Shown: piece after piece, positions 3,001 through 9,000 of the stretch
Position numbering within the stretch: position 1 is the first letter of the stretch
How the letters are laid out: each line of letters begins with the position of its first letter
Made by a program: the position numbers
Virus genome (UHGV): UHGV-2000170
DNA from: a virus
Reading direction: 5' to 3' (one strand)
DNA length: 42,855 nt

Positions 3001-6000
3001 TATCAGGATCTGGAAAATCAGGCCGATATTTCTGACCAGTCCTCCGGTTTACACTGTTCCAGCGAAGCACCGTCGATATTGAAACGCCACAGAATTCGGC
3101 GACTTGTTTTGTTGTCATTAAGTTGTTCATTGTTGACCCTCCTGTGGTTGTGCAGTTGAAAGACTCATGCCAGCGCGTTGTTTCCAGACGACCCAGCCGA
3201 GAGCCATATCCCACGCCATGTACTCGTTATCACCGTTTTTTGCTCTCCGACGATCGACTGTTTTACCGAAACGCTTTTCCATAAATAATTCATAGGCTGC
3301 GCGTTCATCTGGCTCAACTTCCAGAGATGCCAGTGCAATCCGTGCCAGTTCTAAATCATCTTCAAGCTCAGCGCGAATCTCAGCGAATGCACTCTGTGTT
3401 AAGGCGAACTCAATGCTCTGCACTTTATTACGTGCGCGCTCAAGCAGTGCATGGTAGTTAATTTCGGTTGTCATACCCCTACCTCTTCGAATTTCAATTC
3501 CAATTGATCACCCCAGATTTCACATGACTCTGAACACGAGCCGGTATCGAATCGCCTGGCCTGTACCATCGCCTGATACAAATTTCTGTAGTCGCTGTTG
3601 GCAGACATTCTGGCAATTCCGTCAAGCGTCAGGTGACCACGGTACATAACGTCTTTACCTGTTCTGCGATGACCATCCCTGACGTGTTTGCCTGTAACCA
3701 GCTCATTAAAAACTCGCATCAGACCAGGTTCGTCTTTACATGCAAGCCCCAGCTTTTGCGTTGACTTTTTGATGCAGAAAACACAGTTCCCGAGATGCTC
3801 CGGGATTTGCAAATCAAAAGGTTGTTTTCGCCACCACCGGATAACATCCGACTTATCAAAATCTGACAGTTCGGCAAGATACCGGATGCCCGATTTCGGT
3901 TTCAGCCTACGGGGTTCGTCTGCACGAATACCCAGCCATGTGATGTAATTACCTCGCCCGAAATGGTTATCGCAGTATTTCGTGAAAGGGATGAGTTTTA
4001 GCCTGTCAGTACAGAACGCGCCACCGATGTATGGCGTGCCGTACTTTTTAACCATGTCCATAAACGGTTTAAGTACCGGCATTCGCGTCTGAATATCCTT
4101 TGGCTCCCATTCTGTATAACCATTTGGCTGCCCAAGCTCAGGATTGATATCGACCTGCAACACAGTTAGTGGTATGCCCCAGAACTTCACAACCTCCCGA
4201 ATAAAGCGGTATGTCAGCGGATGTTCGCAACCGGTATCCATAAAGATGTAGCAGACGTTATTGCCAGCCTTTCTTTGTTCTTCCATCAGGTGAACAAGAT
4301 ATGCGGATGTTCTCCCGCCAGAAAAACTAACTACATGAGTTATGCACATTTGCGTAATTCCGATAACTCGTTGAAGCGTTCCATAAACATCCCGTAGGCA
4401 TGGCCCGGTGCCAGTGGAATAACTTTGAACATCTCTGTTGCCGGGATACCTTCCAGTACAGGCCATAAAGAGCCATCATCAAGCCCGAGATCACGGCGTT
4501 CGGTTGCCAGCATGATTAGATCGGCATATTTCACAGGCGTGCTCATAACCGGGGGCAACTCGTATTTCTCACGGATTACTGCATCTATTTTTTCTTCCAT
4601 CCGTTTATAGTCAGGAAGAAGGCGTTTCAGTGGTGCGGGGATGTCCTGGCAATACGCTTCTGTTGCATCATGCATTAACGCTTCAAAAGCAAATTCCTGC
4701 GGCACCAGCTGGCTGCAAAGCACCGCATGTTGGGCGACGCTGTAGAAGTGAGAAAGATGACCGGCAAAGCGGCAGATATTTGAAAGGGAAACCGCGATAT
4801 CGTTAATCACGATGTCGTCTTTATTTATCCTGTCATAATAAAAATGCTTCCCGGAAAAAGTTTTAATAAATGACATTTTGTTCTCCACGTATATGCGCTG
4901 CACCGCGCTGAATTTGGGTAAAAGGAAGCCCTCACCATCCGGTGATTATTGAGTTAATTACGTTTCCATAAATGCCCCTGCAGGGGCATTTGCAGTAATG
5001 AAATCAGGCGGTGAAAGTACCAATAAAGGTTTCTACTTTGCTGTCTTTGAATTTCTCAACAAGCAGATCACGAAATTCGTTAGCCATATCTTCCTGCACC
5101 GCTTCCAGCTGAATAATGCGCAGAACCAGTACAGGACGATCGCCAGTGATAATGCTGAGGCGTAATTTAAACGGACGTTCTTTCAGACCTTCAAACGGAA
5201 CGCATTTAAATTCAAATGCCACTGGCATAATGTCTTTGGTCTTCGCTTCGACAGATTCCATCAGGGAGCGTTTGCCGCTGAAGTCATTATCTTCAAAATC
5301 AGCGGTCTGGTTTGCTTCAATCGTGATTTTACGGATTGCCGCAGCCGCTTTTGTTGCCTGAATGGCGTCACCATTAGCATCAAAGCCCACAAGGTAGTCG
5401 GCCCAGTCTTCAATCCATTCTGCCAGTGATTTCTGGGAGTTACGCTCGCCGTTAACAGACAACAGGGCAGAGAACGGTGCTGTCTTTTTCAGTTTGAGAG
5501 TGGCGGTGTTATCTGCGTGACCTGGTTCATCAATAGTACCCAGGTTAAGCACACTGACGGCACGCATATTATCAGCATCGATAAAGCAGCGGGTGCCTTC
5601 ATCTGCAAGATCTTTAGAATAACGGGTAAAGTCATCGATGCTGGCAGTGGAAAGCGCACCACGAAAACGGAAGCGATTTAAATTAAATTTTTCCAGATCA
5701 TGAATGCGGAAATTCTCAGGCAATGCCACAGCATCGGCACCAATCTTACTGATAATTTCATTAACACCCTGAGCAGAAATAAGGGCATGGATTTGATTAA
5801 TTGCGGTTGCGTCTAAGTTCTGAGACATAATAAGTCCTCACTATATTAAGATATTCAGTGATGAGATAAATAATCAGTTAATTAAGAACGATATTAATGA
5901 CCTGCTGCGCGGAGTTTTCCGTCAGGCTCACCGGCAAGAGTCAGTAATTGTCCCTGGTCTTCCTGCAGAATAGTCAGGCGACCACCGCGATTGACATACA

Positions 6001-9000
6001 TCGGCGTTTCGGTGGTGTCTTCTTCGGAAATTTTCCCACGGTTAGTCGGGCGAACATATGAGAGTTTGTGTTTGATTTTCACACGGTTCTCATCAAATGG
6101 TTCGATTTCCAGGTTGAGTGAGACCTTACCTTTGGTTTTCGTGTTCATCACACCGGAAGCGACTTCACTGAGAACTGCGCCGATTTTGGTTTCAAATACG
6201 CCGCCGTCCAGCTCCCCGATAAATGCCTGCACATCAGTACTGCGTTCACTAGCCATTTTGCTGCTCCTCATCATATCGACCCTGCAAGGTCGGTTAGTTT
6301 CTCCACAAAACAGAGAAGAACACCTGCGGTGGCAGCCGCCCGGATGGATTGGGTTATGAGCCCGTCGTCCGATGATGTTCTTCTCTGTTTTGTAAAAAGA
6401 GCGGTACCAGCCGGAAGCAAGTGTACAAACTGGTACCGCCAAAGCAGTGGCTGTTGTGGTGACCGGTGCTGATCTCCGGCTTGCGGTTATTTCAGACTCT
6501 CACGGGCATTTAATTGCCCCGCCGAACAGCTCTTTTCCGCAATATCTGCAATGTCTTTCGCGCATCAGCCTGCGCATTCACCACAACGCTGAGAGCACTT
6601 AGCCAGTTACGGCACCACACTTTGTCGCGGTTCCATAAATGCCCTCATCGTTGCACCCTGGTCTCTTCCCAGGCGTCAAACCGAATCGCCACGCTGGTTA
6701 GGCGTCTTATCAGCATCATCATTGACTTGCACATTCCGGCTACCTGGTTTGTTTGCCCGAGCAAGGAGTGGATTGTCCCCTTTAACGTCCCCAGACCGCT
6801 AACGACGCATGTGCCATACGCCGTGTTACAACCAAATTTTGTTAGTACCTTGTTTGTTTGTCTGGAAAGAAAGATAAAATGAAGTTGCGCATTATGCAAG
6901 TGTTTTTGTTGCGAGATATGCAATTTGATGAGTAATGAAAAGCCACCTTCGGGTGGCTAATTGATGAGGAGGTAAGGGTTAATTGTGTCGCTTAAGGGTT
7001 TGTGACTGGCTGATTAAGACCTTTCCAAAGACCATAAACCGGTGTTCATTTTCGCTGGTAATTCCCCATTCACGGTAAATCTGGTTATCAGAAATCACCA
7101 GTAGTTTGTCAGGTATCATTTGCAGTCGTTTGACATAAATTTTATCATCAAAAACAAATACATAGATACCATCTCCATCAAACTGATTGATACTGACATC
7201 AACGAAGATGAGATCTCCTGGCTCAATGGTTGGACACATACTGTCCCCACGAACGTTGATAACTTTAATGTGATTGGCTGGCCGTCCGCCAAACATCGAT
7301 ACAGCATTATCAGTTCTGTATTCAATGGCATGAATCACATCAATGACATCACCGCCCTGGATAAGGCCATTTCCCGCACTGGCACTGACATCCAGCATTT
7401 CAATACGGAATACATCCTTCACCTGCGCAACATCCTCACTAATACTGTTTTTACATACAGTATTACTTTTGAAGTCTGAGGTAAAGAGATCAGCAATATC
7501 AACACCTAAGCTCCTGGCAATATTACTCAGGGCTTGTTCAGTGAATTGTTTCTGCTTACCTGTTTCCAGGCGTGAGATATTCGCCGCATCCACTCCTATT
7601 GCTTCAGCGAGATCGGCTATTTTCATGTTCTTCGCCTGGCGAAGTTGTCTGACTCGGTTTCCTATGTTCATGCGTTTATTACATTTCTTTATTGCGCGTT
7701 AAGCAAATCAACTTGCGCAAAATATTTGCGTGAAATAATATGCTCATCACGCAATATGTGGAGGTCATATGCAATCACCATTACGTAATGTGCGTAAGGC
7801 GCACGGATTTACTTTGCAGCATGTTGCTGCTGGCGTTCAGGTCAATCCAGCGACGCTGAGTCGTATTGAAAGACTGGAACAAATTCCATCTATCGATCTT
7901 GCAGAACGTCTGGCCAATTTTTTTAAGGGTGAAATCAGCGAAATGCAGATTCTTTATCCGGCACGTTTTCAATCTAGCCAAAACCAGAATGGGTTTAAAC
8001 CACAGGAACAGGAGGTAAGCCGTGGGTAATCATCACTGGAAAGTGGAAAAACAGCCTGAGTGGTACGTGAAAGCTGTCAGAAAAACTATCGCGGCGTTGC
8101 CGGGGGGTTACGCTGAAGCTGCTGAGTGGCTGGATGTTACAGAGAACGCTTTATTCAACCGCCTTCGTGCAGATGGCGATCAGATTTTCCCGCTGGGATG
8201 GGCAATGATTTTACAGCGTGCTGCTGGCACTCACTACATTGCGGATGCTGTCGCACAGTCTGCTGGTGGGGTGTTTGTATCGCTTCCTGAAATTGAGGAA
8301 GTAGAGAACGCAGATATAAACCAGCGCCTGCTGGAAGTCATCGAACAGATCGGGAGTTACTCAAAGCAGATTCGTTCGGCAATCGAAGATGGGGTAGTGG
8401 AGCCACACGAGCAGACAGCAATTAATGATGAATTGTATCTGTCAATTTCGAAGCTCCAGGAGCATGCGGCACTGGTCTACAAAATTTTCTGCGCTCCAGA
8501 AAAGAGTGACGCCCGCGAGTGTGCAGCTCCGGGCGTCGTGGCGTTTTGTGTCTGTGGAGAAACTAACGCATGAACAGTTTAACGGCAAATAACCGTTTGT
8601 CGCAACAGCTGGTGGTCAGTGTCGCTGCACACCTGTTGTTACGGCATGAATGCAGATTACCAAATCACCTGGCTGTAAGTAACCACAGAGAACTTTACCT
8701 GACTGTGGGGGGCGAGTTGTGCAGGAACTTAACCGCTGGTTTCGTGACGGAAGAGGACTTTATGTTCATGTTATTCGTTGGGAGCCAGAAACACAGCGCG
8801 TTATCTATCTTCGCAAAGACTACCCGCATGAATGCTTTAGTCCTTTGTGGAAATTCAGGCGTGATTTTGTTGAGTGTGAAGGACCACCAGCACATTGATT
8901 CTGCCATTCCGGGACGTTACACTGTTCAGGCACCTTATAAAGCGGGTGCCGGGCGTGGAAACCCGGAATTCACCAAAGCGCACAACCGCGCTCTTGCGGT

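Follow-up and report, generated by a model that had tools for sequence, protein, structure and literature searches.

A CPS-53-like leftward early operon of an E. coli prophage with an SspD-like NinC gene in the yfdS slot

The leftward operon and its yfdR-ninC junction

The sequence analysed here is the UHGV virus genome UHGV-2000170, treated as a single window of 42,855 nucleotides to which all coordinates refer. Open reading frame (ORF) calls revealed six genes of the same direction on the minus strand between 6256 and 2936, including one for a PP-loop protein of the NinC family and one for an HD-domain phosphohydrolase, YfdR. They make up the leftward early operon next to the repressor gene in an apparently intact lambdoid E. 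coli prophage resembling CPS-53/KpLE1, in the order yfdP-yfdQ-yfdR-ninC-yfdT-xis, with ninC as the incoming member. We regard this identity, together with the mosaic origin of ninC described below, as nearly certain. There is nothing unusual about the locus: hundreds of E. coli genomes have this arrangement annotated, the genes and the operon type are already known, and each gene belongs to a named family.

The first gene of the operon, a yfdP homolog (5894-6256, minus strand), encodes a protein of 120 residues that matches phrog_204 (E 1e-49); profile and PDB sequence searches gave neither a Pfam nor a PDB match for it. It is followed by yfdQ (5004-5828, minus strand; 274 residues), which matches Pfam DUF2303 with an E value of 4e-93, by yfdR (4340-4876, minus strand; 178 residues; phrog_318, E 2e-108), and by the gene of the NinC-family, SspD-like PP-loop protein (3471-4349, minus strand; 292 residues). 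The latter protein matches phrog_424 (E 8e-92) as well as Pfam PAPS_reduct (35.7 bits), and bears the motif SFSGGRTS at residues 8-15. Further downstream are a yfdT-like gene (3127-3474, minus strand; 115 residues; phrog_660, E 3e-22) with a different N-terminal segment of ~35 residues, and the excisionase gene xis (2936-3130, minus strand; 64 residues), the last gene of the unit, whose product matches phrog_1553 (E 2e-35) and gives HTH_17/MerR-type matches.

A sequence-only reading of this stretch had placed five genes, from yfdP to the 115-residue gene, on the minus strand. The ORF calls confirmed all five at these coordinates, and all of them are also annotated by RefSeq in an E. coli locus of 99.9% identity, so that their presence is far beyond chance. 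The identification of the parts in that reading was accurate, and the 115-residue protein that it had listed as an unknown is a YfdT homolog that is 72% identical to its K-12 counterpart in the C-terminal 79 residues (36-112). On annotated E. coli chromosomes that carry the region at 99.9% identity, the prophage adjoins yjjG.

The five genes had also been described as tightly coupled throughout, which applies only to the distal half of the operon: yfdR and the PP-loop gene overlap by 10 nucleotides (4340-4349), and ATGA overlaps join the PP-loop gene to the 115-residue gene, and the latter to xis. By contrast, the proximal genes are spaced, with gaps of 65 nucleotides from yfdP to yfdQ and 127 nucleotides from yfdQ to yfdR. 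Inside the yfdQ-yfdR gap, 14 nucleotides past the yfdQ stop, is a GC-rich hairpin, AATGCCCCTGCAGGGGCATT (4971-4990, minus strand), which was read straight from the sequence, having been left out by the terminator scan owing to its short T-run, and which is a candidate partial terminator or attenuator. The scan itself found terminator-like hairpins directly past cI (6958-6941, minus strand) and just past xis, at the end of the leftward unit (2852-2877, minus strand; 10-bp stem), so a single leftward transcription unit is plausible. A consensus promoter scan located no pL between cI and yfdP, and the ORF-poor gap of 720 nucleotides at 6257-6978 contains no N-like ORF and no consensus pL.

In addition, a hairpin with arms of 25 nucleotides was observed at 6305-6393 on the minus strand, ~50 nucleotides upstream of the yfdP start. 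Its predicted RNA has a minimum free energy of -52.9 kcal/mol (z = -5.9 versus shuffles) and has no genuine counterpart in Rfam. For the leftward operon, the hairpin may act as a leader, as an RNase III element or in antitermination.

The five genes had been considered a conserved module of unresolved function, which overlooked published work, as the module is the yfdPQRST operon of CPS-53 (PMC4776307). Compared to their K-12 counterparts, YfdP, YfdQ and YfdR are 99.2%, 100% and 97.2% identical, respectively. The window shares with CPS-53 not only the yfdP-yfdQ-yfdR order, but also, in its other arm, yfdN and the Dam gene yfdM. They differ in the remainder of the operon, which in CPS-53 reads yfdP-yfdQ-yfdR-yfdS-yfdT-torI: here yfdS (DUF551) is absent and its slot is occupied by the PP-loop gene, whose product has no similarity to K-12 YfdS; the N-terminus of YfdT differs, and the excisionase is unrelated to TorI. 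Moreover, CPS-53 is a remnant, whereas the prophage of the window looks intact.

In K-12, YfdR binds domain I of DnaA in competition with DiaA and DnaB, and multicopy yfdQ and yfdR plus either yfdS or yfdT block initiation at oriC both in vivo and in extracts, with yfdQ required along with yfdR for the inhibition; deletion gave no phenotype in normal growth (PMC4776307). Binding of DnaA by YfdR and inhibition of oriC would be expected of the window proteins as well, given their identity of 97-100%. A host-takeover activity directed at DnaA is plausibly retained, since the Q, R and T genes are all kept, though YfdT matches only in its C-terminal part. It counts against such an activity that the block by yfdQRST was seen only on overexpression, for which the authors allow an artefact (PMC4776307).

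The H...HD motif of YfdR is visible (QHAV and MHDATE), and its scores against the YfbR models stay below their cut-offs (NF003009, 20 bits versus 122; Pfam YfbR-like, 24.8 versus 25.9); YfdR is an HD protein, but no ortholog of YfbR. As for YfdQ, the PDB entry 9o7m, entitled "YfdQ Protein", contains 36 chains of one sequence that matches the window YfdQ with an E value of 2e-44; a large homo-oligomer of YfdQ thus appears to have been solved. This entry was found by sequence only, and an AlphaFold2 model of YfdQ, with a predicted local distance difference test (pLDDT) score of 77, had no significant Foldseek match in an older PDB copy. No informative PDB match was obtained for YfdP, YfdT or the 417-residue ORF described below. 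In PADLOC, the defence-system match of YfdR was no more than marginal, and YfdP, YfdQ and YfdT had none.

The sequence-only reading had paired the PP-loop enzyme with the HD phosphohydrolase. In such a pair, activation of a nucleotide would fall to the PP-loop enzyme and its dephosphorylation to the HD enzyme, by which a modified nucleotide would be made or removed, or the deoxynucleoside triphosphate pools altered. The overlapping genes are plausibly co-transcribed, 283 E. coli genomes preserve their arrangement, and YfdR has a weak 5'-nucleotidase-type activity according to work cited by PMC4776307, all of which favour the pairing. However, junction counts over 5426 complete E. coli genomes gave the 3' end of yfdR in 2709 genomes, this ninC in 431 (with 72 places on plasmids), and the yfdR|ninC junction in 283. 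About 90% of the yfdR copies are thus without a downstream ninC, and about one third of the close ninC copies are without yfdR.

The break between the two genes is sharp. Matches that lack ninC start at query position 141-143, corresponding to the yfdR stop codon at window 4340-4342; ninC has recombined in exactly at this stop codon, in the slot that holds yfdS in K-12, and the breakpoint falls exactly on the gene boundary. The other contents of this slot include yfdS and yfdT in K-12, and Eae plus a 206-residue protein in phage 2H10. Conversely, the same ninC (~90-92% nucleotide identity) is found amid unrelated flanks in a 93-kb plasmid and an O103:H2 prophage.

A wider sample of 76 viral loci from IMG/VR, representing 40 NinC lineages at 70% identity, placed YfdR beside NinC in 1 of the 40 lineages, with the adjacency restricted to the clade of NinC proteins with 94% identity or more. 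The neighbours that recur across lineages belong instead to replication and recombination: a DnaB-like helicase, an O-like initiator, NinB, NinG/Rap and RusA, in addition to HNH/DUF968, the single-stranded DNA-binding protein SSB and an exonuclease. Lambda NinC resides in the nin region without an HD partner, and the ninC genes of phage Oslo, of the vibriophage and of plasmids have no HD neighbour either. Besides, in the experiments of PMC4776307 it is DnaA that YfdR binds. Altogether, the adjacency of the PP-loop and HD genes is a recent mosaic accident and not a two-enzyme pathway, and we consider functional coupling of the two very improbable. NinC would act independently of YfdR, and the operon is best read as a row of accessory genes, each exchangeable on its own. 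In mosaic phage operons, translational coupling of neighbours should accordingly not be taken for a pathway.

In E. coli lineages, the gene following ninC often opens with an MTT(K/E)INYxAL-like segment, which is succeeded by unrelated C-terminal domains. Here this N-terminal segment corresponds to window 3370-3474, that is, ~35 codons of the yfdT-like gene, and a cluster of 25 genes of this kind lies mostly at position +1 to ninC. It may thus be recombination inside a common, ead/Ea22-like N-terminal segment that shifts ninC between contexts.

The NinC family and its SspD-like features

In tblastn searches, the PP-loop protein had an identity of 79% with lambda NinC over residues 2-287 (98% of the length), of 93% with the copies of Stx2a-converting phages, and of 54% with Salmonella phage genes annotated as NinC. 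By these alignments it is the ortholog of lambda NinC, for which the annotation "PAPS reductase family" is a mislabel. It resembles lambda NinC (orf-290) in size, in the PP-loop and in the cysteine set, and both are non-essential lambdoid accessory genes. They differ in location: the lambda copy is found in the rightward nin region after ninB, whereas the window ninC is part of a leftward operon, between yfdR and yfdT and near xis, an arrangement also present in Stx2a phages. The family comprises 5061 clusters at 90% identity, and 1650 clusters at 50% identity with E <= 1e-3. It is represented in 588 phage records, mostly of Vibrio, Salmonella and Escherichia, and in 331 plasmid records, which include ~95-kb E. 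coli plasmids and 141 records from Acinetobacter; 156 of the 331 are typed as conjugative.

An alignment of 50 family members, reaching down to 28% identity, showed invariant residues in the PP-loop (S10, G12 and S15), followed by E42, C113, K118, the cluster R142/D144/E145/R148, the triplet G187-N188-C189, and finally C272 and C276, while C192 is conserved in at least 90% of the members. The window NinC carries all of the family-invariant PP-loop residues and cysteines, as well as C192. Its AlphaFold model has a pLDDT of 91, with low confidence in the tail of residues 269-292, which contains C272 and C276.

By its profile, NinC groups with SspD, the ATP pyrophosphatase of the SspABCD system of DNA phosphorothioation. 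In PADLOC, NinC scored 54 bits against SspD, compared to 17 bits against BrxP and 13 bits against DndC. Remote plasmid matches of the family led to two Ssp operons, each encoding a cysteine desulfurase, a DUF4007 protein, a large ATPase and SspD. Comparison of the NinC family alignment with single target sequences by hhalign gave a probability of 99.3% (E 8e-21, 218 columns) for the first of these SspD proteins and 99.5% (E 1.4e-22, 207 columns) for the second, whereas E. coli CysH reached 93% (E 2.4e-7) over 108 N-terminal columns, and E. coli QueC 54% (E 1.3e-4) over 55 columns. NinC and SspD have in common the motifs SGGxxS, DTGxE, C-T-x-x-L-K, R-A-D-E-x-x-R and C-x-F-C, in addition to a C-terminal pair of cysteines, and they are of comparable size (292 residues for NinC and 272-279 for SspD). 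Despite the shared motifs, their identity is only 27-28%, and NinC stands alone on phages and plasmids without SspA, SspB or SspC neighbours. Moreover, the tail of NinC has a C-x3-C motif followed by ~15 residues, whereas SspD has C-x2-C at the very end.

The sequence-only reading had argued that the enzyme does not serve sulfate assimilation, which was borne out, and had named QueC, DndC and CysH as the families for comparison. The profiles assign it to neither CysH nor QueC; it is SspD-like. A QueC or deazaguanine-type enzyme was rejected, as the hhalign match shows no homology beyond the PP-loop. A transglycosylase partner (TGT/DpdA), which that reading would have looked for nearby, was absent among the early-region ORFs scanned against Pfam and PHROGs, a scan that leaves the late structural region outside its protein-by-protein scope.

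One alternative is that NinC is a true PAPS or APS reductase, the product of an auxiliary metabolic gene (AMG) by which sulfur assimilation of the host is enhanced. Virome papers continue to adopt this view (bioRxiv 10.64898/2026.02.18.706556), which agrees with the Pfam PAPS_reduct match and with the best Foldseek matches in the PDB, which are APS and PAPS reductases. However, the Foldseek template modelling scores are only 0.4-0.5, the CysH equivalog NF002537 gave 20.2 bits against a cut-off of 154, and the hhalign match is confined to the N-terminal nucleotide-binding half. NinC also keeps an intact ATP-type PP-loop, SGGxxS, at the position where the aligned PAPS reductase has SSSFGIQA. The C-terminal catalytic motif of CysH is ECGLH; the tail of NinC differs, reading GSC-SESCE. 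Furthermore, its gene context is one of replication and recombination genes plus methylases, without sulfur-assimilation genes. A CysH identity was therefore rejected, and the sulfur-assimilation role is in our judgement barely credible. Phage "PAPS reductase" genes, lambda NinC among them, are still tallied as sulfur AMGs in virome studies; their products are SspD-like by the present comparisons, and the genes travel with DNA methylases. The likeness to SspD opens a testable route to the function of NinC in the best-studied phage.

The PDB entry 21fy_C, a protein of 270 residues named "PptA", has the PP-loop and the motifs C-T-x-x-L-K and N-C-x-x-C in common with the NinC family and matches the family profile with an E value of 7e-6. 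It is also the best PDB match of a bona fide SspD (E 2.6e-4). This entry may be the first structure of the subgroup.

Methyltransferase fusions and the proposed role of NinC

The long members of the family are fused to N6-adenine DNA methyltransferases. A PF05869 Dam domain is N-terminal in two of them (P0122 and P0126) and C-terminal in four (P0124, P0129, P0158 and P0082), and P0131 is a fusion with a PF02086 (D12) methylase. Among the 76 viral loci, NinC-methylase fusions occur at 9 loci, in 5 of the 40 lineages. Apart from fusions, the Dam and NinC genes of Salmonella phage Oslo are adjacent and overlapping within the nin region, and an Acinetobacter conjugative plasmid has a NinC-family gene two genes from an N6 methylase.

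The prophage of the window has a Dam-type (PF05869-like) N6-adenine methyltransferase gene in its rightward operon (11215-11901, plus strand; PADLOC MTase_II, E 7e-157). Both proteins match phrog_33262, which has 495 positions, with the window NinC covering positions 2-275 and the window Dam positions 283-492; the two halves of a known fusion are thus both present in the prophage, each in its own operon. A functional link between NinC and Dam may exist in this prophage. A second DNA methyltransferase gene is located at 15810-16862 (plus strand) and, with Dam and NinC, makes three genes of DNA-modification type.

The homolog linked to a phenotype is p0018 of Vibrio phage 44E38.1, a NinC-Dam fusion. 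It is 55% identical to the window NinC over the whole NinC domain and is likewise an early-region accessory gene, and its Dam domain is 30% identical to the window Dam. Differently from the window, where Dam is a separate gene in another operon, p0018 has the two domains fused and is accompanied by p0019. A related phage that received p0018 and p0019 was fully infectious on a host with Dnd (bioRxiv 10.1101/2021.05.05.442762). In a 2026 paper, this result is cited for a phage PAPS reductase evading Dnd, and phage PAPS reductases are named as anti-defence candidates of likely DndC/SspD descent (PMC13551039).

A role in DNA modification or anti-defence, which the sequence-only reading had raised, is the best-supported one, in view of the SspD-like profile, the methylase fusions and the homolog in an anti-Dnd cassette. 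We propose that NinC would be an ATP-pyrophosphatase-type PP-loop enzyme of the SspD/DndC kind, which would hydrolyse ATP, adenylate a DNA-linked substrate and handle sulfur via its cysteines. It would act on DNA, alone or with a Dam-type methyltransferase, and shield the phage against restriction of the phosphorothioate-dependent (Dnd/Ssp) type. The cysteines could ligate an iron-sulfur (Fe-S) cluster, as an analogy to APS reductase and DndC would suggest. For a counter-defence or DNA-modification role as such the chances are close to even, but tentatively on the lower side; that NinC inserts sulfur into the DNA backbone is unlikely. More generally, the NinC family might consist of stand-alone SspD-like enzymes of mobile elements that, together with a fused, adjacent or separate Dam-type methyltransferase, form a minimal phage DNA-modification system, in which sulfur or another group is inserted into phage DNA and confers protection against phosphorothioate-sensing immunity such as Dnd, Ssp or type 4 BREX. 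Such a system is conceivable but doubtful; if real, lambda NinC would at last have a function, four decades on, and the "sulfur AMG" label of viromics would have to be dropped. When operon identity, mosaicism and function are weighted together, the explanation as a whole appears somewhat more probable than its negation.

Two other activities have to be weighed against the proposed one. NinC might modify a base in DNA or tRNA by adenylation followed by thiolation or amination, like the [4Fe-4S] enzymes TtuA/NcsA/TtcA or like TilS, and the Dam-type methyltransferase could then supply DNA binding or base flipping. However, the hhalign match of ~1e-21 to SspD compares with a marginal PDB match to NcsA (E 0.33), NinC has no tRNA-binding domain, and the sole known phenotype of a homolog is escape from a phosphorothioate-based system, which makes base modification decidedly unlikely. 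Alternatively, NinC might be a decoy or inhibitor that, by its likeness to SspD/DndC, binds host IscS/SspA, SspB/C, DndD/E or the restriction module and poisons phosphorothioate-based immunity without catalysis on DNA. A decoy would agree with NinC being homologous to a single subunit of a multi-protein machine and standing alone, without partner genes, and with its dispensability in a K-12 host; to our knowledge, K-12 carries neither Dnd nor Ssp. It is nevertheless improbable, as the methyltransferase fusions are hard to account for and the catalytic-type residues (S10/G12/S15, K118, R142/D144/E145/R148 and four cysteines) are invariant down to 28% identity, a conservation that favours an active enzyme.

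Several points weigh against the proposed modification and counter-defence role of NinC. Ssp or Dnd partner genes were not found beside NinC in the window, nor among the recurrent neighbours at the 76 viral loci. Known phosphorothioation requires SspB/SspC or DndD/DndE, and we know of no report of phosphorothioate in lambda DNA. The Fe-S idea derives from the conserved cysteines alone, with C272 and C276 in the low-confidence flexible tail. Dam (K-12 yfdM) belongs to the CPS-53 backbone also where NinC is missing, and its presence here may be coincidental. The vibriophage swap exchanged two genes at once and displaced two methylases, so the PP-loop domain was not singled out (bioRxiv 10.1101/2021.05.05.442762), and p0019 has no homolog in the window. 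Finally, NinC is dispensable for lambda growth (PMC10695390) and had no interactions in the lambda interactome (PMC3224144); on NinC itself, the literature search yielded essentiality and interactome tables only.

Other features of the prophage

Low-GC sequence (37%) forms an island between the integrase gene and xis, where an ORF of 417 residues (1397-2650, plus strand) matches only phrog_30399, a family of unknown function, and has no Pfam, NCBIfam or PADLOC match. Its position is a typical cargo site for a prophage defence or exclusion gene.

On the other side of the operon, isrK (8930-9006, plus strand) and a C4 antisense RNA (9031-9118, plus strand) were both recognised by Rfam above the gathering score, upstream of a Rha-family gene. 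The stretch 8930-9118 looks like a P1/P7-type antisense immunity module within a lambdoid prophage, and a 383-residue ORF called over the same stretch is unlikely to be a genuine gene over its whole length. Towards the right end of the window, the Rfam RNA IS009 was detected at 41279-41477 (plus strand) with 192 bits, compared to a gathering score of 117.

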